In this document: in pieces, positions 3,930-58,617 of the stretch | Numbering within the stretch: the first letter of the stretch is position 1 | How the letters are laid out: each line of letters opens with the position of its first letter | Origin: Nitrospiria bacterium | GTDB taxonomy: Bacteria; Nitrospirota; Nitrospiria; DASWJH01 | Assembly (NCBI GenBank): GCA_036397255.1 | Contig: DASWJH010000048.1 | Coordinates: 4,172 to 68,171 of the forward strand | Reading direction: 5' to 3' | Length of the DNA: 64,000 nt | Translations under genes and position numbers: made by a program | Notes under the pieces: model-generated | The model's database searches: none | Told to the model about the DNA's origin: nothing | The model's input: the letters and a program-made list of their open reading frames with translations, nothing else

Positions 3930-4568
3930 TTACAAATCATAAGGGAAAAATTCCGAAAGGTGGGGAAGCATTCTTTGAATAAAATCCCGGTGAAGTGATT
4001 TTTGTTTTTCAAACTCTTCAGGCATGAAATAAAAGGAAGAAATTTTAACTAAAGCAGCATCAGTTCTTTTATTCAATATTGCGTTTAATGCATATTTAAC
4101 TCTCCCTGATCTCTTCCCCACCACACCATAAGAATCAAGGAAAAAAGCATATGAAACCAGTGCAAAGCGATTATTTTTTTTAAAACTTGCCTGGTTAATT
4201 CTTAATGAATGTTTTCCCGAATGGACAATCTTTGTGGAGGTGTGGACCAAACCCCAATTTTTATCCGGTAAAATGTTTTGTCCCCCAAATATATTATTCC
4301 CATGTCTAAATTTACCCCAATAACCAATATATAAAGATAATATATTTTTTTTCTCGTCTTGAAAATTTCTTAAAAAGATTACACCATCAGGAATGATTAC
4401 AATATTTTCAAAGGTTTCTTCTTGACCAGTCTGGGTCCAATTTCCCAATGCTTCAGGAAAAAGTCCAAAACTTGCCCTCAACGGGGTTCCCTCTCCCAAA
4501 GGGAAAAATTCAACATAAAGGGCAGTGATGCCTAATAAAAAAATTACAATAATCCACTTTTGAATCAC
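3930..4568 (-). CDS. EpsI-family exosortase-associated protein (periplasmic, with a single N-terminal TM helix)
   Basis: It lies immediately downstream of the exosortase. It has an N-terminal TM helix (IIVIFLLGITALYV) and is about 200 aa, the size and position expected of EpsI. The similarity is judged by context and size, not by a strong motif. Confidence 0.45.
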   Translation of the reverse strand: MIQKWIIVIFLLGITALYVEFFPLGEGTPLRASFGLFPEALGNWTQTGQEETFENIVIIPDGVIFLRNFQDEKKNILSLYIGYWGKFRHGNNIFGGQNILPDKNWGLVHTSTKIVHSGKHSLRINQASFKKNNRFALVSYAFFLDSYGVVGKRSGRVKYALNAILNKRTDAALVKISSFYFMPEEFEKQKSLHRDFIQRMLPHLSEFFPYDL

Positions 4569-4598
4569 AAAAGTTACCTTTAAAAATTTTTCTATTGT

Positions 4599-5483
4599 TT
4601 ACTGGCCCTTTAAGGAAAATTTAAGCGGGACGTAAAAAAAACATTTTTTTATTACCCGATCAATGGCGAAGAAACCAACAATGCCAATTAAAATAACAAA
4701 AGTCCACGCATAGCCATGAAACCCATCTGCGATATCATTATTAAAATAATAGGAAATAAACCCGATGGCCGAAATTCTTAGAATATTTGCGGCGATCGCA
4801 AGCGGTATTGCCAAAAGAATAAAAAGGGTTCGAATATAATTGGAATGGTACCCTAAATAAGCAAACACCGAACTAATGGCAAGAAAGGATATGATGGTCT
4901 GCATTCCACTACATGCTTCTACGATTTCTAAAGAAAGTGATGATAGATGAATCACATGTCCTTCTAAAAAAACTGGGATCTGGGCCAAACCTAATATGAA
5001 ACTTGAACTTCCCGCAATAAAAAACTTTAGTTGATTTGCGACAAAATAATTAATGAAATATGGAATGGGTAACATAAAAACCAAATAGGAAATGGGGAAT
5101 AAAAGTGCCTTTAACATGGTAAATCCATAAAGTACGTAAATTATTCCTAATAGAATTGTTACCATCCCAATTCCTTCGATAAAAATCTGGTCAAGAAATT
5201 TTCCCCATATAAAAAGCGACAAACCACTAAAAAGATACAAAACGCTAAGGGAACTTGTTTTATTATTTTCATATTCATAAAGAAGGGAAGCAATTTTTTC
5301 CCGATGGATCCAAATTAGGTATACCGATACGATTGGAATCAAAAATCCATGAGAGAACTCCGGATCACTTCTCCACTCAAAAAATAGTGCCCCCCCCAGA
5401 GGATAAAATAACCAAATTAAAAGAATTGTCATTAACAAGTAGAACAAAACCTTAAATTTATTAAGATTAATGGAGTTACTCAT
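4599..5483 (-). CDS. exosortase (Xrt family transpeptidase)
   Basis: It is a polytopic membrane protein containing EIVEACSGMQTII (the conserved exosortase ACSG active-site Cys block) and a downstream Arg (NILRIS). Its start overlaps the upstream GT4 stop (ATGA). Confidence 0.75.
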   Translation of the reverse strand: MSNSINLNKFKVLFYLLMTILLIWLFYPLGGALFFEWRSDPEFSHGFLIPIVSVYLIWIHREKIASLLYEYENNKTSSLSVLYLFSGLSLFIWGKFLDQIFIEGIGMVTILLGIIYVLYGFTMLKALLFPISYLVFMLPIPYFINYFVANQLKFFIAGSSSFILGLAQIPVFLEGHVIHLSSLSLEIVEACSGMQTIISFLAISSVFAYLGYHSNYIRTLFILLAIPLAIAANILRISAIGFISYYFNNDIADGFHGYAWTFVILIGIVGFFAIDRVIKKCFFYVPLKFSLKGQ

Positions 5484-9900: not shown

Positions 9901-11130
9901 TTATTTTTGGTAGGTAACTGGCCTGTTTTTTTCAATATGATTCCTAATAAATGCCTCCAGTCTATCCCTTATTTCGACTTTCTCATTTATTAAGTTAATC
10001 TTCTCACCGTAATCCTCTTTCCAATTATACAGCTCAAAAATTGACTCCCCATAATTGGCTATCATTTTCCATTCCCCATTAATTGCGCAGGCATAATTTC
10101 GGCTTTGCTCGCTTATAATAAATTTCGTTTTATAATCACTTTCTCTATTGTACATAAGCGGCATTAGGCTGTTCCCATCAAAATCATAGTTTACCTGTAT
10201 ATCCAAAACATCCAATACCGTAGGAACCAAATCCATAAGGCTGACAGGATAAGAACAAATTTGGCTTTTAATTTCTAAATCCTGAGGAAACTTAATAAAC
10301 AGGGGAACATTAATCATTTCGTTACAAAATATATCCGGATGACCATAGTATCCCCTGGTACCAAATAGATCGCCATGATCTCCTGTAATAATAATCATCG
10401 ATCGACTATCATCGTTTTCGTTCAGCAACTCCCCAATTTGAGAATCCAGGTACTTCATTTTCTCTTTGTAAACCGCAAGCATTTTCTCCTTTTCACTTGG
10501 ATTTATTTTCTCAGGGGAAATAGTAGCCTTTTTCCACACACTTCCTGCCTCCATTCTATTTTTGAATTGCCATCCCGATCTGGAAATATATGGACCGTGT
10601 ATATCCATATAATGCAAGCTAACAAAATACGGTAATTTGTCTTTTTTAAAGTTTTGCCGGATCTGGAAATTTAACTCTTCTCCTGAACTATAAGGATCCC
10701 TCAGGAGGGTTTTCAGTAAAAGGAGGGCCTCTAGCAAAGGCCCATGCATATTCTTGAATAAGATGCCATCATCCCTAAATACATTAAACCCTTTTTCAAA
10801 TTTCCTCCAACTCGACGTGCATGGATTGGCAGTAAAACCATACGTGGAATATCCATTTTTTTGAAGTATTTGCGACAACATCGTCCTTTTTGGAGAAACA
10901 GATTTATACCAATCTCCATATCGACACGGGCAACATCCCGAAAGGATTGCAAGAGCTGACACCGCTGTTCGAACACCAGCCGAATAGGCTGAGGTAAAAG
11001 TAACGCACTCTTTTGAAAAAGCATCCAGGTTGGGGGTCAAATTTTCAATTCGGGCCCCCTCATTGAAACATCCAACAAAATTTCGATTCCAAGAGTCAAC
11101 AATAACCAATACGATATTATACTTCGGCAC
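9901..11130 (-). CDS. sulfatase-like protein (alkaline phosphatase superfamily) with an atypical active-site region
   Basis: It has an N-terminal IVLVIVDSWNRNF metal-ligand block and IIITGDHGD. The canonical C/S-x-P-x-R position reads VRTAV instead, and a CCPCR pentapeptide lies just downstream. Confidence 0.55.
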   Translation of the reverse strand: MPKYNIVLVIVDSWNRNFVGCFNEGARIENLTPNLDAFSKECVTFTSAYSAGVRTAVSALAILSGCCPCRYGDWYKSVSPKRTMLSQILQKNGYSTYGFTANPCTSSWRKFEKGFNVFRDDGILFKNMHGPLLEALLLLKTLLRDPYSSGEELNFQIRQNFKKDKLPYFVSLHYMDIHGPYISRSGWQFKNRMEAGSVWKKATISPEKINPSEKEKMLAVYKEKMKYLDSQIGELLNENDDSRSMIIITGDHGDLFGTRGYYGHPDIFCNEMINVPLFIKFPQDLEIKSQICSYPVSLMDLVPTVLDVLDIQVNYDFDGNSLMPLMYNRESDYKTKFIISEQSRNYACAINGEWKMIANYGESIFELYNWKEDYGEKINLINEKVEIRDRLEAFIRNHIEKNRPVTYQK

Positions 11131-16524: not shown

Positions 16525-17922
16525 CTACAGATACCCCAAACTTTCTAGATTTTTCTTAGTTAATTCATCCACTGAAGATTGTTTTTCGTGTTCTATTTTT
16601 TGATTCATCGCTTGCCATTTTAAAAGTTTTTTCTTTAGCTCTGCCGCAATAATCTTTTCCTCACCAATCTTATTGAAACGTTCATCTTTGTCGCGCCCAA
16701 TATCGTACAGCTCTTCTTTTCCACTCTCACTTTTAATAAATTTATGATCGCCTTGCCTAATCATTACCATAGGGTCTTTAAATCGCCGAACCACCTCACT
16801 TGAGTCCGGATTTCCAACCCGCTTCATGATGAAGCTTGGAATTCTCCCTTCCCATTCCGCAATAATAAACTCATGAAAAATTTCCTTGGTTCCTCCCAAG
16901 CTCACCCCTTGGACTTTCTCTGATAACTGTTGATCTAAACCCAATACGTCAATTACCGTAGGGAAAACATCCACTAACTGCACAAGGCTTGACATCCACT
17001 TTCCATTATCTGAGCGTCCAGGATATTTAATTATTAAAGGGATATGGATTATTGGCTCGTATAGGCTAGAAACATGGGAATAAAGATTGTGTTCCCCGAA
17101 GTGTTCGCCATGATCCGCGGTTAGGATAATCATGGTCTCATCATAGATTCCTTCCCGCTTCAAGAAATCTGTGAGTTCGCCTATTTTTTGGTCCAAATAG
17201 TTTATCTCTGCATCATATAGCGCTTTCAATGCTTCAATTTCATTGGAATTCAGTGTCATTTCATCTACAAAATAAATAAGGGGATTATTAGCAACCAGGC
17301 CCACCTTCTTCAGATCGATATTTTGGAGAGAAATGTCTTTCCAATATCGCGCTTTAAAGGCAGATGGGGGATCAAGGGGGTTGTGAGGTTCTATGTAATG
17401 GAGAAACATATAGAAAGGATTATCCCGACTATCCAGGAACGATCGAAAAGCCAGTTGATTGGTTCGATGTGCACCATGGTCGCTAACACCCATGATACCG
17501 GCACCCTTTCTCAATAAAAAATTGATTCCCCTTTGAACCAGTGACGTTGAGGGTTGCCCCTTCCAAATTTCTTGATAAACCTGGTGCCCCTTTTCGAGTC
17601 CGACGAGTTCTCCCACCTGGGAGTTATTAATAAAACCAAAAGTCTTATAACCACACCCCAACAGAACCTGAGCAAGGGTCGGAATGTCACGCCTCAAACG
17701 ATTTTCACCAACAGCCCCATGACTCGAGGGGTATAAACCTGTTAGCAGAGAGGCATGGGCCGGAGGAGTCCACACGGCAGTCGAATATGCTTTCTCATAA
17801 ACGACCCCTTCCCTCCCTAGCTGATCGATGTTAGGGGATGTGGGCCGCTTGTAACCGTAGCAAGTAAGATGGTCGGCTCGTAACGTATCGATAGATATCA
17901 ACAAAACATTTGGACCTTTCAC
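16525..17922 (-). CDS. sulfatase-like protein (alkaline phosphatase superfamily) with a non-canonical nucleophile motif
   Basis: It has NVLLISIDTLRADHLTCYGY (a choline-sulfatase-like start). AYSTAVWTPPAHASLLTGLYPSSHG occupies the place of the canonical AAPVCSPSRAALLTG, so there is no Cys/Ser-x-P-x-R. Later it has ILTADHGEHFGEH. Confidence 0.55.
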   Translation of the reverse strand: MKGPNVLLISIDTLRADHLTCYGYKRPTSPNIDQLGREGVVYEKAYSTAVWTPPAHASLLTGLYPSSHGAVGENRLRRDIPTLAQVLLGCGYKTFGFINNSQVGELVGLEKGHQVYQEIWKGQPSTSLVQRGINFLLRKGAGIMGVSDHGAHRTNQLAFRSFLDSRDNPFYMFLHYIEPHNPLDPPSAFKARYWKDISLQNIDLKKVGLVANNPLIYFVDEMTLNSNEIEALKALYDAEINYLDQKIGELTDFLKREGIYDETMIILTADHGEHFGEHNLYSHVSSLYEPIIHIPLIIKYPGRSDNGKWMSSLVQLVDVFPTVIDVLGLDQQLSEKVQGVSLGGTKEIFHEFIIAEWEGRIPSFIMKRVGNPDSSEVVRRFKDPMVMIRQGDHKFIKSESGKEELYDIGRDKDERFNKIGEEKIIAAELKKKLLKWQAMNQKIEHEKQSSVDELTKKNLESLGYL

Positions 17923-28479: not shown

Positions 28480-29631
28480 CTACTGTGTTTCAGGATAGTA
28501 TGCGGAATGACGAGCCTTAACGTTAGGCCTCTTTAAGAGAAGACTAAAAAAAGTTTTTGGCAAGGCTTGATTTTGCCCTGATACGATTAGATTTTTGTTG
28601 GGTTTTCTTCTCAGGTTCATCTTTTTAATTTGATGCATGCTGGACTTTAACAATTCAATTGGGAGGTAGATAAAGGCCAATAGCTTTTTATTAAAGGCAA
28701 TAGATGAAAACTCATACCCATATTCTCTCATGAGAAAACCAGTTAATTTTTGAATGATGAATATCTTTGACCGTGACAATACTTTTTCCCCCTTCCGGAT
28801 AGATTGGGTGTTTACCCTTTTTAAAGTTCCCTTTTTCCAAGGTTCATTTTTAAAATAATTAGTAGATGTCTTATAGAATTCCAACATGGTTTCGGAATAT
28901 TCCTCTCCCACAAACCTGCATAATCTTTCCATCTCCTCTTTAGGGTGTTGAGTTAAATCCTCATACCGAACTTCAATATAGGATTCTTCTCTATTGGAAA
29001 AATGATTACCCAAAACAATATCACTTGCCCAAGAAAGAGCATGTATAATGATATCCTTTGAGGCATCTGGCATTTTCAAACTGGAGGCCACAACATCCCT
29101 GGGGTCCCGGATAATATGAATAACCTTGGCATTAGGAAATATTCTAAAAAGTTGATCAATATGCCTCACATTCCCTGGTGTTTTTTCCCCAAACCTGGTT
29201 GCCCCCTTTATTTTTGCGTACTCCTCGAGAAGAATCCTATAGAATCCCTCATAAGTTCTCGACTTGATCACTAGCATTCTATCTTTAACCCCCGAAAGAA
29301 TTTCCTCAATACCCGGCAAAAACTGGAACGCTCGAATTCTTCTCACAAAAGAAAAAAATTTTTCCAAATCTTCATCCCTACTCATTGAAGGTATGAATCG
29401 CTTGATTTGCAAAATTTGGTCAAAATAATGAATCTCCCCAAAAATAGCAATTTTGGGATGGGCATTGATTATGAGCTGCAACATGGTTGTGCCTGACCTT
29501 GCGGCTCCTACGACAAAAATTGGAAAACAGTCTTGAAAGCCTTCTTGAATATTTTTATTATTATTCATTGATAAGGAAAATCTTTTAATTTCTAAAAAAG
29601 AATCCTGATTTAAAGCATGGTGGTTTCTCAT
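28480..29631 (-). CDS. PAPS-dependent sulfotransferase
   Basis: FPIFVVGAARSGTTMLQ is the 5'-PSB P-loop-like motif, and VIHIIRDPRDVVAS is the 3'-PB motif. Both are sulfotransferase hallmarks. Confidence 0.7.
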   Translation of the reverse strand: MRNHHALNQDSFLEIKRFSLSMNNNKNIQEGFQDCFPIFVVGAARSGTTMLQLIINAHPKIAIFGEIHYFDQILQIKRFIPSMSRDEDLEKFFSFVRRIRAFQFLPGIEEILSGVKDRMLVIKSRTYEGFYRILLEEYAKIKGATRFGEKTPGNVRHIDQLFRIFPNAKVIHIIRDPRDVVASSLKMPDASKDIIIHALSWASDIVLGNHFSNREESYIEVRYEDLTQHPKEEMERLCRFVGEEYSETMLEFYKTSTNYFKNEPWKKGTLKRVNTQSIRKGEKVLSRSKIFIIQKLTGFLMREYGYEFSSIAFNKKLLAFIYLPIELLKSSMHQIKKMNLRRKPNKNLIVSGQNQALPKTFFSLLLKRPNVKARHSAYYPETQ

Positions 29632-39383: not shown

Positions 39384-40373
39384 TTAAAGATCCCCCCGTT
39401 CGCGATACCAATTCGAGGTTTGCCGGGCACCATTCTCGAACGTTACCGTCGGGGAATACCCTAACTCAGAACGCATAAGGTCTTGCTTAAAGAAAAAACT
39501 TTTCCGGAAAAAATCCATTCTTCGGCGATGGAGTGGTGGTTGAATTCCCAAAGGTTTAAGGACCGTTTCCATTACTGCAGCAACCATTAAAAAAGGCATT
39601 AAAGGAACCCGCCATTTAGGTAACGAACACTCTAAAACCTGCGCAATCGTATTGACCATCTGCTGGGTTGTGACCGCCTCATTCCCAGAGAGGACATAGG
39701 TTTTCCCCAATACCTTTTCGGATCTGGCGGCAACCAGAAATGCCCCTATTAAGTCATCAATGTAAATTGGATGGTGAAGATTCTCGCCATTTCCAATCAC
39801 AAAAAAAACCCGTTTTTTAATTGCACGAAAAAGCTTTAACAGTCTCCGATCTCCCGGGCCATAGGTTTCAGAAATTCGTAATATCACGACCGGTAATTTT
39901 TCCTTAAAACGCAAAACAACCTTTTCTGCTTCGGCCTTCGTTATTCCATAAATATTGTCTGGACTTAGTTTCGACCCCTCATGAATGGCACCCTCCAATG
40001 CCGATCCATAAACACCGATTGTGCTCCCGTGGATAAATCGTTTGACCCCAGAGGAAACAGAAGCCTCTAACATGTTCTGGGTTCCCGAGACATTAATATC
40101 CCAAAAACGTTGATTTTGAATATTCGCTTCATGTTGAGCTGCAGCAAGGTGAAAAACCAAATCGGTGCCTTTTAGATGCTTCTCAAGATTACCTCTATCG
40201 GTAACAGAGACATCCACCACCCTAACGCCTTTGGATTGAAGCCAACGGGCGTTTTCTAACTCGGTTGGATTATTGGTCTGGCCCAACACCACAACCGAAT
40301 TCCCCTTTTCATGACAATGGAAGGCAAGCCTCGACCCGATAAAACCGGTTCCTCCCGTAATTAAAAGCTGCAT
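39384..40373 (-). CDS. NAD-dependent epimerase/dehydratase (extended SDR)
   Basis: MQLLITGGTGFIGSRL is the Rossmann GxxGxxG, and the protein has a YxxxK region. The ORF track extends to 40487, but the internal Met (MQLLITGG) at 40371-40373 is the likely start, because it removes the overlap with the upstream gene. Confidence 0.7.
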   Translation of the reverse strand: MQLLITGGTGFIGSRLAFHCHEKGNSVVVLGQTNNPTELENARWLQSKGVRVVDVSVTDRGNLEKHLKGTDLVFHLAAAQHEANIQNQRFWDINVSGTQNMLEASVSSGVKRFIHGSTIGVYGSALEGAIHEGSKLSPDNIYGITKAEAEKVVLRFKEKLPVVILRISETYGPGDRRLLKLFRAIKKRVFFVIGNGENLHHPIYIDDLIGAFLVAARSEKVLGKTYVLSGNEAVTTQQMVNTIAQVLECSLPKWRVPLMPFLMVAAVMETVLKPLGIQPPLHRRRMDFFRKSFFFKQDLMRSELGYSPTVTFENGARQTSNWYRERGDL

Positions 40374-40395
40374 TAGGTCACTCGCCCTCCTTGAC

Positions 40396-42099
40396 TCAAA
40401 TGTTCTTTTGATCTTTTGATCTTTTGATGACAGGTTTCCGAAAGTATGCGTTGACCCCTTCAATCTCCTGATGGCGCCGAGTTTCATCCCATCCCAAGGC
40501 CGACGCCATAACCTTCGAGCATTCGGTCAAAACTTCTTCGCCGGGATGTGTTGCGGTTCCCAAACCCGTTCGACGGAAAATAACATCTTCTAATTTCATG
40601 GCCATCTCTTCTTGGATACAATAAACAACCTCTGCTTTGATCACATCAGACTGACCCAGGGTAACGGCTAAATCTTTTAATTCTTCCACATAATGGAGAA
40701 CATCTTTGTAACGGGTTCCATGGCGATGAAGTAAGGCGATTAATATATTTTCTGGTAAATCCAACGAGAGTTCTTGTTTTGCCCTTGATAAGAGATTTTC
40801 AAAACTCTCAAAATCACCTCCATCAATAGGAGTTTCCGAAGTATAAGATCTTCCGACCTTCTTATTGAGTTTTTTTGAGGCTAAATCAATGGCCCGCTCT
40901 GCAACCCCTCTTGCCGTTGTATAACGAACGCCGACAAGGGTAATCAAACCGTCCAAACCGTTTTGTTTTTTATGGTCAACAAGCATCGAGCGCTTTCCAT
41001 AACTTAAATTGATAGACTGCGGCGTGTTTGCCCCGAATAAAACAAGGCCCGTGTAAAATTGGCTAATATCCTCTTCCGTTAGCTCTGCAGTGGGATAGGC
41101 CTCGTTTATTTCATCCAGAAAACACCGCAATTCCTCATAACCAATCGTTAATTGGTCAGGATGGCCTTCATAGACCACATGCCATACTCCAACCAGGGTT
41201 ACATTGCGCCAAGGTACTAGGAAAAGATGCCGGGCTCCCCGGCTCAGGAGGGCGTCAGGGTCTTGGGTTCGGCACGAAACCGCCAAACCACAGTCATTGA
41301 TCAACCTTCGATTGACGACAAAACTGGTATCTCTTGAAAACGATGGGCTTGGGTTTAATTCTAATTTAACGGAATGAAAAAGAAATCGATTTGCCCAAGG
41401 ACCCGCGGCATTAATAACCAGCCGGCCCCGAACATCAAATGTTTCACCACCAAGACGATCCTGTACTTTGACTCCGTAAAATCGACGGTCTTTCTGTAAA
41501 AAGTCAATCGCCTCGACATAATTTGCGGCCCGGACACCCGCTTCACAAGCGGATTTCAGGAACGACAGCGCTAGTCGAGCGGGGTCTCGCATTTGGCCAT
41601 CATAAAATATGGCCGCCCCGGTCAGCCCTTTTTGTTTAACCCCCGGAAACCTTTCAATGCATTCTTCCCGGGAAATAAAATAAGCAGCTGGAATATGTTG
41701 TTTGGGATCTGATATTCCTCTATTTCTATCAGCGGTTATCCCTTCATAAAGCCAAAAAGCAGCCTGAAGAAGGGCTTTCCCCTTCAACCCTTTCCCATAG
41801 GTCGGAATGGCGATCGGAAGCGGATGAACCAAATGCGGTGCAATTCTCAGGAGGGCTCTTCTTTCATTGCTCGATTCACGAATGCGATATAAATCGCCAT
41901 GTTGAAGATACCGAATCCCACCATGAACCATCTTAAAACAATTTGCAGAGGTCGCATGTGCAAAATCACCCCGCTCTACCAAAGCAACCGAGAATCCCCG
42001 AAGAACGGCATCCCAGGCAGCACATATTCCAAAAATTCCTCCCCCGATGATAACGAGGTCAAACTCCTTTTCTGTAAGACTCTTTACATTTCTGATCAT
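40396..42099 (-). CDS. FAD-dependent oxidoreductase of the glycerol-3-phosphate dehydrogenase (GlpA/GlpD) family
   Basis: FDLVIIGGGIFGICAAWDA is the FAD-binding GxGxxG. ATSANCFKMVHGGIRYLQHGD matches the GlpD signature (the S-x-KLIHGGLRYL type). Confidence 0.65.
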   Translation of the reverse strand: MIRNVKSLTEKEFDLVIIGGGIFGICAAWDAVLRGFSVALVERGDFAHATSANCFKMVHGGIRYLQHGDLYRIRESSNERRALLRIAPHLVHPLPIAIPTYGKGLKGKALLQAAFWLYEGITADRNRGISDPKQHIPAAYFISREECIERFPGVKQKGLTGAAIFYDGQMRDPARLALSFLKSACEAGVRAANYVEAIDFLQKDRRFYGVKVQDRLGGETFDVRGRLVINAAGPWANRFLFHSVKLELNPSPSFSRDTSFVVNRRLINDCGLAVSCRTQDPDALLSRGARHLFLVPWRNVTLVGVWHVVYEGHPDQLTIGYEELRCFLDEINEAYPTAELTEEDISQFYTGLVLFGANTPQSINLSYGKRSMLVDHKKQNGLDGLITLVGVRYTTARGVAERAIDLASKKLNKKVGRSYTSETPIDGGDFESFENLLSRAKQELSLDLPENILIALLHRHGTRYKDVLHYVEELKDLAVTLGQSDVIKAEVVYCIQEEMAMKLEDVIFRRTGLGTATHPGEEVLTECSKVMASALGWDETRRHQEIEGVNAYFRKPVIKRSKDQKNI

Positions 42100-42117: not shown

Positions 42118-43011
42118 TTAATCATTTTTTTTGATATTTGCCTTTTCTTGATATTCTTTTAATAGGTCTCTCATTGGCCCGAATTTAAATTCCTTCAATA
42201 ATTTTTTTAACCGGGGCTCCGTTTTCTCTAAAAAAATATAATGTCGAAACCGTGACAACATACTCCCCTCTAATCTTGGCTGGTTTGTATCAATTTCCCA
42301 CGGATGTAAATAAACAATGATGGGTTGATTTTCTTTTTCAACAATACTATTTAACCCCCAACGAAGGAACCAATAAGGAAATAATCTCAAATAACCTCCC
42401 CCAGCAATGGGAATATTGTTATTTAGAATTTTAATGGTCGACAGAGGGATCTCTAAAATATCGGACCCATTCTTTCCATTAATTCTATATGGAAACCTTT
42501 TCGCATTGGGAATTCCATAACGGTCCCTTCGTATGGGAAAAATACTCGAATCGTATAAAAAACCCTCCTCCATCATGATATCCAATGCCCACAAGGAATT
42601 TTCAGTAATCGAGTAACTGGGTGCGCGATACCCAATGACAGGTTCTCCAATTATTTCTTCAAGAATTCCCTTAGACTTATTCAAGTCATCCCTAAATTCC
42701 TGTGGGTTTTGCTTGTATACCAACCGATGGGCATAACTATGGGAAGCAATTTCATGACCTTCTTTATGAATCCGTTTTACCAGCTCAGGAAATTTCTCAG
42801 CGATCCACCCCAAAATAAAGAAAGTTGCCTTCACATTATATTCATTCAAGATAGATAAAAGTTTATCGGTGTTGGCTTCAGCACGGCATTCAAAGTTACC
42901 CCAATCCTCAAATCTTATTTGAGATTCAAAGCCCGAAACATTAAAATAATCTTCTACATCAATGGTTAAAGCATTGATCATTGACTTTTTTAACCTCGTA
43001 GCTAGCGGCAA
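42118..43011 (-). CDS. polysaccharide deacetylase family protein (the exosortase-locus-associated subfamily)
   Basis: LTIDVEDYFNV...HSYAH. The IDVEDYF start is characteristic of the deacetylase subfamily found in PEP-CTERM loci. Confidence 0.6.
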   Translation of the reverse strand: MPLATRLKKSMINALTIDVEDYFNVSGFESQIRFEDWGNFECRAEANTDKLLSILNEYNVKATFFILGWIAEKFPELVKRIHKEGHEIASHSYAHRLVYKQNPQEFRDDLNKSKGILEEIIGEPVIGYRAPSYSITENSLWALDIMMEEGFLYDSSIFPIRRDRYGIPNAKRFPYRINGKNGSDILEIPLSTIKILNNNIPIAGGGYLRLFPYWFLRWGLNSIVEKENQPIIVYLHPWEIDTNQPRLEGSMLSRFRHYIFLEKTEPRLKKLLKEFKFGPMRDLLKEYQEKANIKKND

Positions 43012-44213: not shown

Positions 44214-45569
44214 TTAAATTAGGGAAGGGGTATCAAAATCCTGATTCGACTCAATCCCCAATGCCTTCACAACGGTAGGAGCGATATTCACAATATTGAC
44301 CCGGTTAGAAAAAGCATTTTTTACACTGATATAAAAAGTGGAATCATTCTGGGTGTGCATTCCGGTCAAAAGGCTATTTCCTGTAAGCGATTGTTTACTA
44401 ATGGTACCCTTCAGGTCATATCCCCAATTTGGAAGGAGAAGAATATCGGGGGCGTCGTTTATAAAGGAACCATTAAAAAGCTCCTCCTTAAAGTAAACTG
44501 TTTTAACCACGGGAAAACCATCGACCTTTAATTCCATTAATCGGGATTTTAACTCCTCTCGAAGGGAGTCATATTCCTTACCCGGTGAAATGCAGCCGGA
44601 GGGATATTTGCCCCTTAGATGAATATAAATTCTTGCAGGATCCATGTTGAATGCTTTTGTACCTTTATCAATATCCAAATAGGATTGAGGGTTTTCTCTA
44701 GAAAATCTCAGGTAGTCGTTCGAAACCAACCAATGATTAAGGTAAACCTCCTTCTGAATTTTACAGAAGCCGTGATCAGACATGATCATAAAGACACCTT
44801 TTCCTTGGAACCACTCATAGACTTTTCCTATGAATCGATCAACCTTAGAATAAAAAGACTTAAAAAAACCGTGAAACTTATGTTGAGGATCTTCAATGGC
44901 CACCCAAAGGTAGTGATGCATCCGATCTGTTTCAGTAATAACCCCAATAAAAAGATCCCATTGCTCGTTGATGAGAAGGTCCCATAGGATTTTTTCCCGG
45001 GCAGCAAAAACCTTATCAAGATCCTCCACAAAAACCTCTAATGATTCCCGTGCTTTTGTTGCATCCACGTCAAGTTGATAATTCACTTTTTCAAGCTTTG
45101 GCAGTAAGGAAGAGGGATATGTTGCTTTTGCTAAGTCTATGGCGACAAAACCAGATATAAGGGCCCCATTCAGAGGTTTCGCGGGATAGGTAGAAGGGAC
45201 ATTAACAACAATAGAGCGTTTACCATGCTCTCCTATTATTTCCCAAATGGGTTTTGATTTTATGTTGTGGGAATTTGGGAAATACATATCATAACTATTT
45301 GCCTTTAAATCCATAAAGCCAAAAATTCCATGCTTTGCCGGGTTCACTCCCGTGAAAAAAGTGGTCCAAGCCACAGAGGAGACCTCTGGGATACTCGTAT
45401 CCATTTGAGAAAGTGTCCCCTCCTTCACAATTTGAGCCAAATGAGGCATTGTCCCATCCTGTATGAATTTTTGCATCAAAGTATATGGGGCTCCATCCAA
45501 TCCAAGGATAACAACTTTTTTCATCTTAGAAGTGGTAAGGCTTGATTTTAAATTTTGTAATAATGCCAT
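44214..45569 (-). CDS. alkaline-phosphatase-superfamily nucleotide pyrophosphatase/phosphodiesterase (NPP) family protein
   Basis: ILGLDGAPYTLM...TSIPEVSSVAWTTFFTGVNPAKHGIFGF resembles the NPP metal-site/Thr-nucleophile block. Confidence 0.5.
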   Translation of the reverse strand: MALLQNLKSSLTTSKMKKVVILGLDGAPYTLMQKFIQDGTMPHLAQIVKEGTLSQMDTSIPEVSSVAWTTFFTGVNPAKHGIFGFMDLKANSYDMYFPNSHNIKSKPIWEIIGEHGKRSIVVNVPSTYPAKPLNGALISGFVAIDLAKATYPSSLLPKLEKVNYQLDVDATKARESLEVFVEDLDKVFAAREKILWDLLINEQWDLFIGVITETDRMHHYLWVAIEDPQHKFHGFFKSFYSKVDRFIGKVYEWFQGKGVFMIMSDHGFCKIQKEVYLNHWLVSNDYLRFSRENPQSYLDIDKGTKAFNMDPARIYIHLRGKYPSGCISPGKEYDSLREELKSRLMELKVDGFPVVKTVYFKEELFNGSFINDAPDILLLPNWGYDLKGTISKQSLTGNSLLTGMHTQNDSTFYISVKNAFSNRVNIVNIAPTVVKALGIESNQDFDTPSLI

Positions 45570-45590: not shown

Positions 45591-46754
45591 TTAATTTACT
45601 ACGGCAACCCCAATAATCTTTCCCTTGCTTTTTAAGGCCATTCGCCCTAAAGAGGTTTTGCCTCTTTCCACAATCAAGGGATCTTTAAATTTGAGCTTTA
45701 CTATGCAAACCTCACCAATTTCAGCCTGAGCCAAAGTCTCAAACTCACATTCGGTCCTTGAGGGGCCGCATTCCAAAACAAGGTTATTTGGAACTTCTTC
45801 AAGCAAGATCGCATGGGCAGTTGCCTCGCGCGTGACCTGTGCAACACTCTCAGGAAGGCAACAAACCTCCCCCCGGTGAACGGAGGGTAGATTCCGGTCT
45901 AACACTAAACCAATATTTTCCCCGGGCATGGCAGTTTTTTGATTTTTATCCACTCCCATGATGGAACGAATGGTCGCCTTTCCATTGGAAGGGACAAAAA
46001 CAACCTCTTGCCCCACATGAATCTCCCCACTTTCTACCTTCCCTGCAAGGATCCGTTCGCCTGCCTTATTCTCGTACACATCTTGAACCGGTAACCGCAA
46101 GGGGAGATTCAAGAATGAATTCTGAACCTCTAATCCTTCCATATGCTCAAAAAGGGTCCTCCCCGTGTACCAAGGCATCTGTGACGAACGGGCCACCACA
46201 TTATCTCCCTTATAAGCGGAAATGGGAATAAAATCCACTTTTGGGCCAAGGATTGGTGTCTTCTCCAATGCCTTGATCTTTGAAACCATCTCCTCAAAAA
46301 CCTCTTGCTGATACTCCACATGGTCCATTTTATTAACCACGACGATTAGGGAAGCAAGCCCAAGCCAATTTGCTAATCGTAAATGGTGGCCGGTCTGTTC
46401 CTCTAAACCCTCCTTAGCTGAAACAATCAAAATTCCCGCATCAGCATGAGAGGCACCACTGAGCATGTTCTTGAGGAGTTCTCTGTGCCCAGGAACGTCG
46501 ATACAGTCATAAATATTTTTTTTACCTTTGACCTGAGCGTGAATTACATCAATCGTCATCCCATCTCTTCGCTCTTCCTCAAAGCTATCCAATAAAAAAG
46601 CGTACTCAAATGGTTTCCCAACTGTCTTGCAATACTCCCTCACCTCTTCAGTGCGGTCTTCCATTACGCTTTTAGTGTCATATAGAAGACGGCCAATCAA
46701 GGTGGACTTGCCATGGTCCTTATGGCCCAACAGTGTAATGGTAAATCGTTTCAT
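45591..46754 (-). CDS. cysN: sulfate adenylyltransferase subunit 1-like GTPase (CysN/NodQ-type, EF-Tu fold, no fused APS kinase)
   Basis: G1 is GHKDHGKST, G3 is DVPGH, and G4 is NKMD. It is translationally abutted to the upstream CysD-like gene (stop and start adjacent). Confidence 0.7.
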   Translation of the reverse strand: MKRFTITLLGHKDHGKSTLIGRLLYDTKSVMEDRTEEVREYCKTVGKPFEYAFLLDSFEEERRDGMTIDVIHAQVKGKKNIYDCIDVPGHRELLKNMLSGASHADAGILIVSAKEGLEEQTGHHLRLANWLGLASLIVVVNKMDHVEYQQEVFEEMVSKIKALEKTPILGPKVDFIPISAYKGDNVVARSSQMPWYTGRTLFEHMEGLEVQNSFLNLPLRLPVQDVYENKAGERILAGKVESGEIHVGQEVVFVPSNGKATIRSIMGVDKNQKTAMPGENIGLVLDRNLPSVHRGEVCCLPESVAQVTREATAHAILLEEVPNNLVLECGPSRTECEFETLAQAEIGEVCIVKLKFKDPLIVERGKTSLGRMALKSKGKIIGVAVVN

Positions 46755-47546
46755 TTACATATACCCCAAAGCTCGAAGGCGCTGCATGACATTCTCCTGC
46801 TCCTTGTCCTGCATTCGACCCGCTCTCTCAGAAGTGGTTGTTGTTTTAAGCTCTTCAATAATTTCATCAATAGTGGAGGCATGGGAATCAATCCCCACGG
46901 TGCATTGTGTACAGCCCAGACTACGGTAGCGGTTACCATTTCGGGAAAAGTAGAGAGGATTTACAGGTATCTTCTCCTGTTTAATATAAACCCACATATC
47001 CAATTCGGTCCAATGCAGTAAAGGATGAATCCTGATATGTGAAGCGTCCTCCGTCTGAGAAATAAAATCCCAAATTTCCGGAGCCTGGTTTTTGTAATCC
47101 CACCTAAACTCCTTATCTCTTGGAGAAAAATACCTCTCTTTCCCCCGAATTCCATGTTCATCTCGCCGGATTGAAACGAAAAGACCATCAAAGTTCCGCT
47201 CCCCCATCAAACCCTTAAGCGCATCGGTTTTATTTGAGCCACAGCACCTGACGCCTGACAAGTCATCCTTGATCACACTTTTGGGTACCAGCAGATCTAG
47301 GCCCCATTCCTTTGCTAGCCTCTCCCTGAATTCATAGGTTTCTGGAAAATCGATTCCATTATCAATATGAATCAAAGGAAAAGGAACACGACCGAAAAAC
47401 GCCTTTCTCGCCAAAGCAACCAAAACGGTTGAATCCTTTCCTGTTGACCAAAGGGCTGCTAGATTCTCAAACCGCGCATGGGCTTCTCGAATCGTAAAGA
47501 TACTCTTTGCTTCCAACTCCTTTAATTCATTTACCTCACTCATCAT
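46755..47546 (-). CDS. cysD: sulfate adenylyltransferase subunit 2 (PAPS-reductase-fold ATP pyrophosphatase, CysD)
   Basis: ALWSTGKDSTVLVALA is the PP-loop. Its size and its pairing with the CysN-like GTPase support the call. SD GGAGAC lies upstream of the MM start. Confidence 0.7.
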   Translation of the reverse strand: MMSEVNELKELEAKSIFTIREAHARFENLAALWSTGKDSTVLVALARKAFFGRVPFPLIHIDNGIDFPETYEFRERLAKEWGLDLLVPKSVIKDDLSGVRCCGSNKTDALKGLMGERNFDGLFVSIRRDEHGIRGKERYFSPRDKEFRWDYKNQAPEIWDFISQTEDASHIRIHPLLHWTELDMWVYIKQEKIPVNPLYFSRNGNRYRSLGCTQCTVGIDSHASTIDEIIEELKTTTTSERAGRMQDKEQENVMQRLRALGYM

Positions 47547-47678: not shown

Positions 47679-48203
47679 TTAACTACCCACCACGTGCCCA
47701 AGATCTACTGTAACACGGGCGTGGAACGAGATCGTACGCAATAAGAGCATTGCCCTTTGGTGGTCAGGTAATTCTTGTTGAAAAACAGCTTCAAACCCTT
47801 GTAAGGGCCCTTGTTGAATACGAACTACTTGCCCTTCCACAAAAGAGGAATTTTTAATAATGACGTACCCGTCTTTACATCGGATCTTGATTGATCCAAT
47901 AATTTCTTCCTCAACTTTCACTGGAAAAGATCCAAAAGCAACAAGGCTTTTCACCCCATGGGCAAAAGCCACCATTCTGTAGTGTTGGCTCAGATTAAAC
48001 CTTGCAAAAAAATAACCCGGAAAAAGAGGACGCGTAACCGTTTTCCTGTTTCTCCGAATAATCCTTTCCTGTTGAAATCGGGGACAAAATGTCTCTATTC
48101 CAAGCCTTTGTAAATTCAATTCTGCAAAATTTTCTCGGTTGGGTTTAGTATGTACTGCATACCAATAAACTTCACTATCACCCATGCTTTTTTGATTCCC
48201 CAC
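47679..48203 (-). CDS. NusG-paralog transcription antiterminator (UpxY/RfaH-like)
   Basis: YWYAVHTKPNRENFAELNLQRLGIETFCPRF is the NGN domain, and EGQVVRIQQGPLQG is the C-terminal KOW. At 174 aa it lacks features of the full housekeeping NusG. Confidence 0.7.
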   Translation of the reverse strand: MGNQKSMGDSEVYWYAVHTKPNRENFAELNLQRLGIETFCPRFQQERIIRRNRKTVTRPLFPGYFFARFNLSQHYRMVAFAHGVKSLVAFGSFPVKVEEEIIGSIKIRCKDGYVIIKNSSFVEGQVVRIQQGPLQGFEAVFQQELPDHQRAMLLLRTISFHARVTVDLGHVVGS

Positions 48204-56105: not shown

Positions 56106-56624
56106 TTATTCTTGGGGAAGACAAATCAAATTTCCACCCTCTGCCCGGGCTTTTTCTAACATTTCCTCTGCTTTTGAAATCAGGCTTTCAATGTCATTGG
56201 AATGGGTTGGAAAAGAGGCCCCTCCGATACTAATCGTTTGCTTCCGCTCCATTACCTTCACAATAAAAGTATAATCCTGTATCCGATCTTTAATTCTGTT
56301 TCCAATCTGACAGGTGCTTTGATAGTCTGCATGATGCAGAATTAAGAAAAACTTATTGTTTGCAATCCGGCCTATAATATCCGTTCCCCTAATCTCATCC
56401 CGAATAAGGTTTGCAAATGTTTTGAGCAAAGAATCATCCGAGAACGGAAAAGGCTCTTCCTCCTTCTTCATTTGGTCGGGCTGAATAATCAAGAGGGAAA
56501 AAAAGTAAAGGTATCGAACTGCTTTTCGAACTTCTAAATCAAGAAGGTATTCAAAAAACTCACGATCTAGCGTTTGTGTGACCCGATCCAACACGACATG
56601 CCCTCCTCTCTTTGGAATGGGCAA
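56106..56624 (-). CDS. stand-alone degenerate GGDEF-domain protein (catalytically inactive; candidate c-di-GMP/GTP sensor)
   Basis: YLYFFSLLIIQPDQMKK aligns with the l-DiDhFK region, and GRIANNKFFLIL sits where R-x-GGDEF should be. ISIGGASFPTHS...EEMLEKARAEGGN aligns with the SiGva...AD-aLY-AK--GrN C-terminus. Confidence 0.5.
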   Translation of the reverse strand: MPIPKRGGHVVLDRVTQTLDREFFEYLLDLEVRKAVRYLYFFSLLIIQPDQMKKEEEPFPFSDDSLLKTFANLIRDEIRGTDIIGRIANNKFFLILHHADYQSTCQIGNRIKDRIQDYTFIVKVMERKQTISIGGASFPTHSNDIESLISKAEEMLEKARAEGGNLICLPQE

Positions 56625-56770
56625 AGCCCTTCCATCAGCTCAAGTAAAAACAATCCCAATTTTCAGAAAAACTTCAACTAGTACCTAATACAATTTTTCG
56701 TTTTTTCATTACGGGAAGAATATCGAAAAAATTTTTACCGGGTTTCCCCATTCGAAATCTTAATTTATCC

Positions 56771-58204: not shown

Positions 58205-58617
58205 ATGATTCCTCTTTCATTAAATGGTCTAGGAGAATAGATTAAATAATTTTTCCTCCTATATTTAATAGTTAGCTTTTAGGTGCAAGGATTGTACCAA
58301 TTAATTAAACTTCCCAATACTAATTAAATTGCAATAAAACTAATAAGTTATAACTTTTTTTCTGTTAATTTATTTTCTTGGGATGTGAAATGAAAAAAGT
58401 AAAGGAAAAAAAATTACATAAAGTGTAAATTTTATACTATTTATGTCTAAATTTTACCTATTTTAAGAAATTAATTAACCATGAACAAAAAATAAAGGAA
58501 TTAAATAACCTAAAAATCAAACCTTGTTTCCCTTTTATGAAAAACACACCCTTCTAGGCAAAATATAATAATTGGGTTATACTTTAAACCAACTTAACCC
58601 AAAAACCTTCGTAAATC
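58205..58617. promoter_or_regulatory. 413-nt AT-rich divergent intergenic region carrying promoters for the sigma-54 regulator/EPS cluster (minus) and the REC-GGDEF gene (plus)
   Basis: It is the longest non-coding region in the window and is about 25% GC. It is flanked by divergently transcribed regulatory genes. No individual motif is confidently assigned. Confidence 0.4.

Follow-up and report, generated by a model that had tools for sequence, protein, structure and literature searches.

A predicted GTPase-coupled sulfate-activation module beside a cytoplasmic alkaline-phosphatase-superfamily gene in an exopolysaccharide operon of a Nitrospiria bacterium

An exopolysaccharide (EPS) operon of a Nitrospiria bacterium contains a pair of abutting genes that, with strong support from the sequence, is predicted to encode a genuine GTPase-coupled ATP sulfurylase. 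The assignment of the pair as a co-transcribed part of the operon that would be dedicated to sulfating the EPS polymer, in the manner of NodPQ, is likewise strongly supported. Our comparisons also strongly support placing the module in a widespread kinase-less class, in which a cytoplasmic alkaline-phosphatase (AP)-superfamily gene, not cysC, lies beside an unfused GTPase across phyla. The AP-superfamily enzyme is referred to here as NPP-A. Our explanation as a whole combines a dedicated GTPase-coupled sulfurylase module for EPS, an NPP-A that would act on activated sulfate, and docking tails, and we hold it with moderate confidence. The analysis covered 64 kb of a Nitrospiria MAG (Nitrospirota), called the window, together with approximately 14 kb of contig flanks that were examined for APS kinase.

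Table 1. Features of the window discussed in the text
Feature	Position	Strand	Length or model match
CysD, ATP sulfurylase catalytic subunit, PP-loop ATP pyrophosphatase of the GTPase-coupled type	46755..47546	-	263 aa
C-terminal tail of CysD, QENVMQRLRALGYM-COOH, putative docking peptide	46758..46799	-	shared tail motif
Compact EF-1alpha/CysN-like GTPase, G-protein partner of CysD	45591..46754	-	387 aa
NPP-A, cytoplasmic AP-superfamily enzyme, conserved third gene of the module	44214..45569	-	PF01663
NusG paralogue (RfaH/UpxY-like), upstream of cysD	47679..48203	-	PF02357
XrtA-system polysaccharide deacetylase (locus-type marker)	42118..43011	-	TIGR03006, 396.8 bits (cut-off 276)
Canonical sulfotransferase	28480..29631	-	Sulfotransfer_3, 123.5 bits; alignment to TPST2
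Sulfatase-family AP-superfamily protein with the shared C-terminal tail (..KKNLESLGYL)	16525..17922	-	PF00884, 153.8 bits
Second sulfatase-family protein, without the tail	9901..11130	-	PF00884, 110.5 bits
Exosortase EpsH and EpsI (PEP-CTERM/XrtA EPS markers)	3930..5483	-	PF09721, 184 bits; PF11984, 81 bits

Organization of the locus

The cysD, GTPase and NPP-A genes all lie inside one unidirectional XrtA/PEP-CTERM exopolysaccharide operon (Table 1). In addition to the marker genes in the table, the locus encodes a chain-length/tyrosine-kinase pair (GNVR/Wzz and AAA_31) and a sigma-54 response regulator (Sigma54_activat), and the exosortase, EpsI, the XrtA deacetylase, a Wzx/Wzy pair, glycosyltransferases and the sulfotransferase are all encoded on the same strand. 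CysD and the GTPase are encoded between the NusG paralogue and NPP-A, as the earlier note on this DNA had placed them. The NusG paralogue scored 112 bits against the RfaH model and 76 bits against the UpxY model, each under the curated cut-off, and is probably the antiterminator of the operon. Two sulfatase-family proteins are encoded farther along the operon strand. The tail-bearing one has no C/SxPxR formylglycine motif, signal peptide or transmembrane segment; in the second, CCPCR at residue 66 matches CxPxR, and no signal peptide was found.

Since the pair is predicted to be co-transcribed within the XrtA/PEP-CTERM operon, it would be a sulfate-activation module dedicated to that polymer. 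Homologous CysD/GTPase pairs also occur in EPS loci of like type (L008 and L011). Such an arrangement resembles NodP/NodQ and other dedicated CysDN copies, in which a pathway-dedicated module lies in a glycoconjugate locus alongside a sulfotransferase. NodPQH is a second, dedicated sulfate-activation module for sulfated glycoconjugates, and NodQ carries an APS-kinase domain; in contrast, the present locus lacks a kinase across approximately 78 kb.

CysD and its GTPase partner

CysD carries the PP-loop WSTGKDST at residues 33-40 and matched PF01507 (PAPS_reduct fold) with 122 bits. Its score against the NCBIfam model NF003587 (302.6 bits) is above the cut-off of 195, and its scores against TIGR02039 (226 bits; cut-off 396.6) and NF009214 (227.6 bits; cut-off 413) are under both cut-offs. 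The protein aligns at full length to the CysD chain 1zun_A (199 bits) with a deletion of approximately 35 aa, and it keeps the loop FRWDYKNQAPEIWDF (pattern FRWDxKNQxPExW). This loop tracks the GTPase: it was found in 58 of 59 CysDs that adjoin a GTPase and in 0 of 22 GTPase-less CysD-like proteins. The abutment of the two genes described earlier was confirmed, with the TAA stop codon of cysD directly followed by the GTPase ATG at zero gap (...GGGTATATGTAAATGAAACGA). A 21-nt spacer containing AGGAAGG separates the GTPase stop codon from the NPP-A ATG.

The GTPase has intact G1-G4 motifs (GHKDHGKST, DVPGH and NKMD). Its top profile match was the EF-1alpha model NF008969 (319 bits), under the cut-off of 502, and it was also under the cut-offs of the CysN models TIGR02034 (266.8 bits; cut-off 336.1) and NF003478 (265 bits; cut-off 590). 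Among PDB sequences, aEF1A scored higher (239 bits) than CysN (193 bits). The AF2 model (pLDDT 86) has three domains, and Foldseek aligned it with a TM score of 0.80 both to aEF1A (3wy9_A, 34% identity) and to CysN (1zun_B, 26% identity). The earlier note was right that the protein has no fused APS-kinase domain, but its supposition that a domain is missing from the 387-aa protein did not hold, since the model and the Foldseek comparison with CysN and aEF1A show a compact three-domain protein.

The pair is like the CysD-CysN systems of the E. coli cysDNC operon and of P. syringae (1ZUN) in that the genes for a PP-loop CysD and for a GTPase derived from EF-1alpha directly adjoin each other. Unlike CysN, however, the GTPase has no N-terminal extension and a trimmed domain III, and its identity is 26% with CysN but 34-35% with archaeal EF-1alpha. 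Furthermore, cysC is neither fused nor adjacent, and an AP-superfamily gene comes next instead; a linked kinase, as in CysNC and NodQ, is frequent among CysN proteins but is not a fixed feature. By analogy, CysD would convert ATP and sulfate to APS, and the compact GTPase would drive this unfavourable reaction as CysN does.

The earlier note had allowed that the pair might be assimilatory and unrelated to EPS. A cysDN pair without a kinase is normal in APS-reducing assimilators, and the higher score with EF-1alpha than with CysN would suit a translation-factor paralogue unrelated to CysD. However, Pfam scans of the window ORFs detected neither cysH nor a sulfite reductase nor a transporter for sulfate. 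The pair follows the antiterminator candidate within the operon and is read in the same direction as the sulfotransferase, and the occurrence of homologous pairs in like loci also leaves the assimilatory reading unsupported. The abutting stop and start codons and the GTPase-linked loop kept in CysD argue against a translation factor. We therefore regard an assimilatory pair of the APS-reductase route that merely lies within the EPS region, or a GTPase unconnected with CysD, as barely credible.

Absence of APS kinase and supply of PAPS

Pfam scans of all 54 window ORFs of at least 150 aa gave no match to PF01583, the sole match to the Walker A pattern GxxxxGK[ST] in a six-frame search of the window was the GTPase, and tblastn with two APS-kinase probes found no APS kinase in the window or flanks. 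These searches bear out the earlier report that the 64 kb holds no APS kinase. A co-transcribed cysC just outside the window, which would have made the locus ordinary, is excluded for 10 kb past the window end, where che genes are found, and for the approximately 4 kb between the window start and the contig end.

The sulfotransferase aligned to TPST2 keeps both the 5'-PSB (GAARSGTT) and the 3'-PB (RDPRDVVAS), whose roles are known from established sulfotransferase structures, and it probably uses the activated sulfate within this operon. Because the 3'-phosphate-binding motif is retained, this enzyme probably needs PAPS, and the motif speaks against the earlier suggestion that the sulfotransferase uses APS, as far as this canonical enzyme is concerned. 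An APS kinase is therefore expected elsewhere in the genome, and a distant cysC is most likely the supply route for the sulfotransferase. Since the sulfotransferase looks PAPS-dependent, the locus would not be self-sufficient unless NPP-A supplied PAPS.

NPP-A, the third gene of the module

NPP-A matched PF01663 with 151.4 bits (cut-off 23), and no signal peptide or transmembrane segment was found. Residues D25, S64/S65, D215, R216, H219, D265, H266 and H405 are invariant among 29 family sequences, and the complete set of metal ligands is kept together with the nucleophile, which is Ser. Among solved structures, its AF2 model (pLDDT 89) most resembles PhnA and the NPPs, with 13-18% identity. 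Phe85, invariant within HGIFGF, presumably takes the place of the Asn through which NPPs contact the phosphoryl group, as judged from a manual motif comparison with the Xac NPP sequence. NPP-A thus has the fold, metal ligands and nucleophile site of the NPPs and phosphonoacetate hydrolase (PF01663); it differs from NPPs in its low identity, its Ser rather than Thr nucleophile, its cytoplasmic location, an invariant Arg after the Asp ligand, and genomic partners that are sulfate-activation enzymes. A profile search at E <= 1e-30 put the family at approximately 5,200 clusters (50% identity). One 556-aa relative (P0037), considered as a GTPase fusion, was dropped as its C-terminus is frameshift-like low-complexity sequence.

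Our literature searches found no biochemical precedent for an AP-superfamily sulfotransferase, and searches on NPP with APS kinase and EPS, on sulfated EPS in Nitrospira and on COG3379 found nothing relevant. Agl7 of H. volcanii was considered as a possible AP-superfamily protein and hence a possible precedent. In a search seeded with a haloarchaeal NPP-A homologue, every match was named 'alkaline phosphatase family protein' and Agl7 was not among them; Agl7 is not used as evidence here. Agl7 is reported to be required for dolichol-phosphate hexose sulfation (PMC3892788).

Gene neighbourhoods of NPP-A and the GTPase

NPP-A relatives are present in 525 species genomes. Our census used the best 80 loci from species genomes in a larger match list, without de-replication, and a sulfate-activation or sulfate-transfer gene lay at most two positions upstream of NPP-A in 66 of these 80. 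The upstream partner was an APS kinase (40 loci), a GTPase-less CysD-like protein, called CysD-like2 (21), a small sulfotransferase (3) or CysD with the GTPase (2). One NPP-A-adjacent APS kinase that was tested passed the NCBIfam cut-off of 244 with 280.6 bits. Adjacency of NPP-A to sulfate genes recurs in Nitrospirota, Acidobacteriota, Schekmanbacteria, Verrucomicrobiota and metagenomes, and in one instance (P0352; E = 5e-82) NPP-A is naturally fused to a CysD-like protein. This fusion, like metazoan PAPS synthase and the CysN-CysC fusions, couples sulfate-activation steps physically, as the tails of APS kinases possibly do, but it involves an AP-superfamily enzyme where those systems have a P-loop kinase.

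A second sample, unbiased with respect to NPP, was obtained by scanning metagenomes with an alignment of the GTPase; the matches listed are relatives at 34-47% rather than members of the close clade, and the loci used were likewise the best 80 of a larger list, without de-replication. Among them, an AP-superfamily gene lay within three genes of 35 of 47 unfused CysD/GTPase pairs, against 0 of 11 long CysN forms (Fisher p ~ 6e-6), and none of the 47 had an APS kinase. The census and the fusion lend strong comparative-genomics support to the earlier proposal of a role for the NPP-like neighbour in nucleotide-sulfate metabolism; the reaction itself is inferred.

One could instead suppose that CysDN feeds a distant cysC and that NPP-A is an unrelated EPS-modifying phosphodiesterase, there by chance. 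The canonical sulfotransferase requires a cysC elsewhere anyway, and polysaccharide loci often hold AP-superfamily genes. Nevertheless, the adjacency recurs across phyla and involves three kinds of sulfate-activation partner, and both a gene fusion and a common tail motif are seen. A chance neighbour is thus strongly disfavoured, and we consider it very unlikely.

The place of NPP-A in the module, which is that of cysC in cysDNC operons, raises the question of a non-orthologous replacement of CysC. NPP-A would then be a phosphotransferase that takes up phosphate as phospho-Ser, for example from the PPi that CysD releases, and hands it to the 3'-OH of APS, and CysD, the GTPase and NPP-A would form a complete PAPS synthase. 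Phosphatases are known to transphosphorylate from PPi, PAPS is probably required by the window sulfotransferase, and the fusion resembles bifunctional PAPS synthases. Furthermore, among the matches listed, no CysD/GTPase pair had both an AP neighbour and an APS kinase, whether fused or adjacent. However, a bona fide APS kinase is the upstream partner of NPP-A in half of the 80 best loci, and the replacement would therefore be redundant if the NPP-A orthologues (approximately 50% identity) share one function. We also know of no AP-superfamily nucleotide 3'-kinase, and we judge such a replacement decidedly unlikely.

NPP-A might also scavenge by-products without handling the sulfuryl group, hydrolysing either PPi, which would pull the sulfurylase, or PAP, which would free sulfotransferases from inhibition in the way of a CysQ analogue. 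Plain hydrolysis is the default chemistry of the AP fold, a GTPase-less CysD-like2 would require product removal, in one locus (L093) NPP-A has an APS kinase on one side and a sulfotransferase on the other, and in Natronococcus (N. occultus) a family member adjoins an inorganic pyrophosphatase and not sulfate genes. On the other hand, we give less weight to the PAP-phosphatase role because one NPP-A operon (L048) already encodes a CysQ-type Inositol_P protein. The commonest neighbour, APS kinase, yields no PPi, a housekeeping PPase is already present in cells, and tandem tail-bearing paralogues fit poorly with a scavenger, which we consider unlikely.

We prefer a reading in which NPP-A would itself use the activated-sulfate nucleotide as substrate: at the Ser64/two-metal site, it would pass the sulfuryl group of APS (or PAPS) on to an acceptor that is a sugar or is lipid-linked. 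In a Blastocatellia operon, an APS kinase is encoded together with four AP-superfamily proteins, a flippase, a YfhO-like protein and a polyprenyl-P-hexose GT2, and canonical sulfotransferase genes are absent up to 10 kb away. The pyrophosphatase neighbour in Natronococcus, on the other hand, weighs against this reading. Canonical sulfotransferases adjoin NPP-A in several loci (L022, L048, L055, L077 and L082) and occur in the window, so NPP-A is not needed as the sole transferase.

A shared C-terminal tail

CysD ends in a motif, EEE[VI]xx[RK]LxxLGY[MLVF]-COOH with the acidic stretch at its start, that is common to five unrelated enzyme families: CysD, APS kinase, small sulfotransferases, NPP-B and sulfatase-like paralogues. 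In 84 related loci, the motif ended 93 of 1087 ORFs, all 93 in these five sulfate-linked families, and it was found on none of 83 NPP-A proteins and none of 7 GTPases. Within the window, it occurs on CysD and on one of the two sulfatase-like proteins (Table 1). Small RHH-like proteins also carry the tail, and it was seen in an internal loop of TauE permeases that adjoin cysD.

Such a tail would serve as a docking peptide that holds these enzymes together, and its receptor would be the EF-1alpha-like GTPase or NPP-A. The tail is like that of the archaeal stalk protein aP1 on aEF1A (3WY9), whose aEF1A chain is the best structural match of the window GTPase: in both, a short hydrophobic C-terminal peptide of the LxxL type comes after an acidic linker. 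The tails differ from that of aP1 in ending in LGY[MLVF] and in being carried by metabolic enzymes, and docking on the GTPase is putative. Many loci that encode a tail-bearing protein lack a GTPase gene within 10 kb. In view of the acidic stretch before it, the tail was judged less likely to be a membrane-targeting helix.

Implications for sulfate activation

More broadly, but only tentatively, the cytoplasmic AP-superfamily enzymes (NPP-A, NPP-B and the sulfatase-like paralogues) may constitute an unrecognised branch of sulfation, together with a metabolon built on the LGY-tail. Such a branch could be a new class of sulfotransferases that sulfate glycans directly from APS or PAPS and for which APS kinase would be dispensable, or it could make PAPS out of APS with no P-loop kinase involved. 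In the metabolon, the LGY-tail would mimic the archaeal ribosomal-stalk tail and dock on the EF-1alpha-derived GTPase (or on NPP-A).

Sulfated bacterial exopolysaccharides are relevant to biofilms, granular sludge and host interactions. To our knowledge, the textbook pathway of EPS sulfation is always drawn from ATP sulfurylase through APS kinase to a PAPS-dependent sulfotransferase. The present locus exemplifies a large group in which a phosphatase-type enzyme occupies the kinase slot next to CysD/CysN. If NPP-A uses APS directly or makes PAPS in another way, this pathway would have a further branch that has gone unrecognised, and a function would be assigned to many 'alkaline phosphatase family proteins'. 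The C-terminal tail common to five families offers a concrete handle on how sulfate-activation enzymes are organised, and it may reveal the way in which clients are brought to a G protein derived from EF-1alpha.

The CysD/GTPase gene pair and its locus

The 54 ORFs that reach 150 aa, called mechanically, were compared with Pfam and NCBIfam models, which showed that a single long minus-strand exopolysaccharide (EPS) locus of the XrtA/PEP-CTERM type lies in the window. The locus encodes exosortase EpsH and EpsI, an XrtA-system deacetylase (TIGR03006, 396.8 bits against a cut-off of 276), a priming sugar transferase, Wzx-like and Wzy-like proteins, a chain-length/kinase pair, an outer-membrane export protein, many glycosyltransferases and a sigma-54 response regulator.

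Features of the EPS locus (positions in the window)
Feature	Position	Strand	Description
Sulfatase-family protein, second	9901-11130	-	CCPCR (CxPxR-like) at residue 66; no signal peptide, no tail
Sulfatase-family protein	16525-17922	-	PF00884; in EPS operon; no signal peptide, no C/SxPxR formylglycine motif; ends LGYL
ATP-grasp ORF	19088-20851	-	C-terminal low-molecular-weight phosphotyrosine phosphatase domain in the same ORF
APH-type kinase-like protein	22991-24133	-	380 aa; in EPS operon
Canonical sulfotransferase	28480-29631		
ORF	32296-32961	-	221 aa; no Pfam match; in EPS operon
Two mechanical ORFs	39384-40487; 40396-42099	-	92-nt overlap
NPP-A	44214-45569		Gene after GTPase; PF01663 'Phosphodiest', 151 bits
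GTPase, CysN-like	45591-46754	-	387 aa; GHKDHGKST, DVPGH, NKMD; Pfam GTP_EFTU and GTP_EFTU_D2
CysD	46755-47546	-	263 aa; PP-loop WSTGKDST
NusG paralogue, RfaH/UpxY kind	Upstream of cysD		Below both curated cut-offs
Head of EPS operon	56106-59550		Sigma-54 response regulator (PrsR-like), stand-alone GGDEF protein, divergent REC-GGDEF protein

The pair of CysD and CysN-like genes described in the earlier note is real: the ORFs, the PP-loop, the G motifs and the abutting stop and start were all found, the ATG of the GTPase coming straight after the TAA of cysD. A 21-nt spacer containing AGGAAGG separates the GTPase gene from that of NPP-A, an alkaline-phosphatase (AP) superfamily protein. CysD scored 122 bits against PF01507 (Pfam scan) and 302.6 bits against the NCBIfam CysD subfamily model NF003587, above its cut-off of 195, and scored under the cut-offs of stricter NCBIfam CysD models; it aligned with 1zun_A of the solved CysD-CysN complex (199 bits) over its full length save a deletion of ~35 residues. 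An identical GTPase is on record in a Nitrospiria MAG and several metagenome contigs, with the gene order unchanged.

The protein at 16525-17922 is probably not an ordinary secreted sulfatase. A sulfatase-maturing enzyme was not noticed among the genes of the window. The overlap of the two mechanical ORFs is probably an artefact of using the first start codon, and gene callers on the source contigs placed the epimerase start later (329 aa). No PrsK-like kinase was found in the window.

The missing APS kinase and the canonical sulfotransferase

The 64 kb had been said to lack a fused or separate APS kinase (CysC), and our searches agreed: the 54 ORFs contained no APS_kinase domain (Pfam), the P-loop of the GTPase was the sole GxxxxGK[ST] in the six frames of the window, and tblastn with two APS-kinase probes gave no match in the window or its flanks. 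A co-transcribed cysC just outside the window was not found either; on the source contigs, the window is followed by 10 kb of chemotaxis genes and preceded by fn3/PhoD-like genes, with the contig ending 4 kb out, and cysC is absent from these ~78 kb.

The canonical sulfotransferase aligned with human TPST2 over the two motifs that bind PAPS, GAARSGTT and RDPRDVVAS. In sulfotransferase structures, motifs of the first type bind the 5'-phosphosulfate and those of the second type the 3'-phosphate. Since both are kept, the enzyme should need PAPS, and the retained RDPRDVVAS disfavours the earlier suggestion that it uses APS. The simplest and likely source of PAPS would be a kinase encoded elsewhere in the genome.

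A compact, EF-1alpha-like GTPase

The GTPase scored higher against the EF-1alpha profile NF008969 (319 bits) than against the CysN profile TIGR02034 (267 bits), both under the cut-offs, and comparison with solved proteins gave 239 bits for archaeal EF-1alpha and 193 bits for CysN. Its AlphaFold model (25 family members, pLDDT 86) comprises a G domain (residues 1-207), domain II (220-300) and domain III (307-386), and superposes on aEF1A-GDP (3wy9_A; TM 0.80, 34% identity) and on CysN (1zun_B; TM 0.80, 26% identity). None of the three domains is missing; at 387 aa, the protein is short because it has no N-terminal extension and no CysC domain, and because domain III is trimmed. CysN descends from archaeal EF-1alpha (PMC4342817), and the clade of the window GTPase is a compact, EF-1alpha-like form of CysN.

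Of 59 CysDs beside such a GTPase, 58 had the loop FRWDYKNQAPEIWDF; it was missing from all 22 CysD-like proteins that lack a neighbouring GTPase. Because the genes abut and the loop tracks the presence of the GTPase, a working partnership of the GTPase with CysD is supported at the sequence level. The pair would work as CysD-CysN does, although the GTPase scores under the curated CysN cut-offs, and would be put to a use similar to that of NodPQ; NodQ, however, carries a kinase, whereas the window module has none.

AP-superfamily neighbours of the GTPase

Metagenomes were scanned with the GTPase alignment, a search in which the NPP played no part; this gave relatives at 34-47%, and the set consisted of the best 80 loci of a longer list, without de-replication. 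Among the loci listed, 47 had an unfused GTPase (<480 aa) next to CysD; an AP-superfamily gene lay within three genes in 35 of these (35 of the 41 having any downstream ORF), and none contained an APS kinase. No AP-superfamily gene lay within three genes in the 11 loci with a long GTPase (>=550 aa; Fisher p = 6e-6 among the loci listed); in 9 of the 11, an APS-kinase-like domain could be detected or a kinase lay adjacent. The neighbours of the unfused pairs were NPP-A, its longer paralogues (NPP-B), sulfatase-like proteins or a 'mini' PF01663 protein (230 aa) encoded between cysD and the GTPase gene. The window is therefore typical of a class whose CysD and GTPase have an AP-superfamily enzyme, rather than CysC, as their companion.

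The reduced protein (miniAP, ~230 aa) occupied this position in L104-L108, L117, L118, L120 and other loci; in L104, a PstS-type (PBP_like_2) ABC transporter and a TauE permease come next.

The NPP-A family and its neighbourhoods

NPP-A belongs to a large, well-conserved family without a name, annotated everywhere just as 'alkaline phosphatase family protein' (2360 word-index matches; 5211 clusters at 50% identity in a profile search, E <= 1e-30). The metal ligands and nucleophile (D25, S64/S65, D215, H219, D265, H266 and H405) and the Arg beside D215 were invariant in 29 members, the sequence contained no signal peptide or membrane segment, and the model (pLDDT 89) was closest in fold to phosphonoacetate hydrolase and NPPs (13-18% identity). 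NPP-A is apparently an active, cytoplasmic enzyme.

Other members include P0388 (639 aa), with a putative C-terminal domain resembling, by eye, a 2-oxoglutarate/Fe(II) oxygenase, and P0247 and P0366, with tandem NPP domains; tandem-NPP proteins end LGYLD or LGYLE. Members are widespread among cultured Halobacteria, and in Natronococcus occultus (CP003929; L179:9017-11344) an inorganic pyrophosphatase gene precedes a homologue by ~450 bp in otherwise housekeeping surroundings.

With each GTDB species represented by one genome, a scan gave 525 relatives; the census used the best 80 loci, without de-replication. Within two genes upstream of NPP-A on the same strand, these 80 loci had an APS kinase (40), a GTPase-less CysD-like protein ~30% identical to the window CysD (CysD-like2; 21), a small sulfotransferase of ~224 aa (PF00685; 3), CysD with the GTPase (2), anything else (12) or a contig edge (2). 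One of the kinases was scored, at 280.6 bits, above the curated cut-off of 244. In P0352 (707 aa), a natural fusion, a CysD-like2 domain (45% identity, E = 5e-82) comes after NPP-A; the P0352 gene, the one such fusion found, sits in a nonulosonic-acid glycan cluster. NPP-A is genomically tied to enzymes making or using APS/PAPS. The proposal that it takes part in nucleotide-sulfate metabolism thus stands as a genomic association, borne out by the censuses and the fusion, whereas the reaction, like every function given here to NPP-A and the tail, is one that we infer.

A real APS kinase as immediate neighbour in 40 loci (best 80 of 525) argues against NPP-A being a CysC analogue that phosphorylates APS, the third of our readings in preference, even though mutual exclusion with CysC around CysN would suit it. 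That commonest neighbour yields no PPi, which also weighs against our second reading, a scavenger of PPi or PAP, simple as the chemistry would be; moreover, one operon (L048) already has a CysQ-type gene. This operon (L048:7824-12854, Nitrospira sp. Ru_enrich_NS) encodes an APS kinase, the CysQ-type Inositol_P protein, a 224-aa sulfotransferase with an LGYM tail, NPP-A and a 492-aa protein without a Pfam match.

In Nitrospirota, the CysD-like2/NPP-A pair has a PrsK-like kinase on one side and a PrsR-like sigma-54 regulator on the other. In L092:6954-12852 and ~20 other Nitrospirota loci, the CysD-like2 stop overlaps the NPP-A start, and the PrsK-like GAF/histidine kinase and the PEP-CTERM-system regulator flank the pair; in the same slot, L076 has an APS kinase in place of CysD-like2, and L030/L031 have NPP-A alone.

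A Blastocatellia operon encodes an APS kinase, NPP-A, two to three NPP-B, a YfhO-like membrane glycosyltransferase, a flippase and a polyprenyl-phosphate-hexose-type GT2, with no canonical sulfotransferase within 10 kb; the operon resembles a pathway to a sulfated lipid-linked sugar. L021/L091 and ~35 other Blastocatellia loci (e.g. L091:9382-17033) keep the operon, with a tailed APS kinase and some tailed NPP-B; the YfhO-like protein is a GT-C and the flippase is Wzx-like.

A shared C-terminal tail

The proteins upstream of NPP-A have unrelated folds but like C-terminal ends: ...VMQRLRALGYM in the window CysD, ...IMGKLRDLGYM in CysD-like2, ...EEEEVRRRLEALGYV in APS kinase and ...IKARLRDLGYM in the small sulfotransferase. 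Two window proteins have the tail, CysD and the sulfatase-family protein at 16525-17922 (...KKNLESLGYL). A C-terminal GY[MFLVI] was looked for in the 1087 ORFs retained from 84 loci and occurred in 93, all of them in sulfate-linked families: 39 of 42 APS kinases, 22 of 22 CysD-like2, 5 of 6 CysDs, 4 of 4 small sulfotransferases and 23 NPP-B. It was absent from all 83 NPP-A, all 7 GTPases and every other ORF of the 84 loci. Position -10 was V/I and positions -6 and -3 were L in all 93, position -7 was R/K in 88, and an acidic run precedes the motif.

In the loci found through the GTPase, small ribbon-helix-helix-like proteins (70-109 aa) upstream of cysD in L099, L107, L131, L153, L162 and L168 have an acidic, RLRxLGY[FLI] end. 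TauE-family permeases beside cysD (L099:301-1137, L107, L131) have the motif too, but inside the chain, in a loop (e.g. KERLSQLGYREKF).

We read the tail as a putative docking peptide. The EF-1alpha-derived GTPase is a candidate receptor by analogy, because the acidic/hydrophobic C-terminal tail of the stalk protein aP1 is bound by archaeal EF-1alpha (entry 3WY9) and because canonical CysD also ends GY-Phe (1zun_A alignment). NPP-A may be another candidate, because it is never tailed and is a constant neighbour, a constancy that arises partly from ascertainment.

A possible role for NPP-A

The reading that we place first is that NPP-A would move a sulfuryl group from APS or PAPS onto a glycan or lipid-linked acceptor. 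Sulfuryl transfer suits every context seen, and it is favoured by the kinase-less CysD/GTPase modules and the CysD-like fusion, by the Blastocatellia operon without a canonical transferase and by the tail on the paralogues; it also agrees with the sulfuryl-transfer chemistry known in the AP superfamily. However, such a role for NPP-A has no known precedent, and canonical sulfotransferases adjoin it in some loci. The AP-superfamily partner and the shared tail suggest a substantial chance of new biochemistry behind known sulfate activation.
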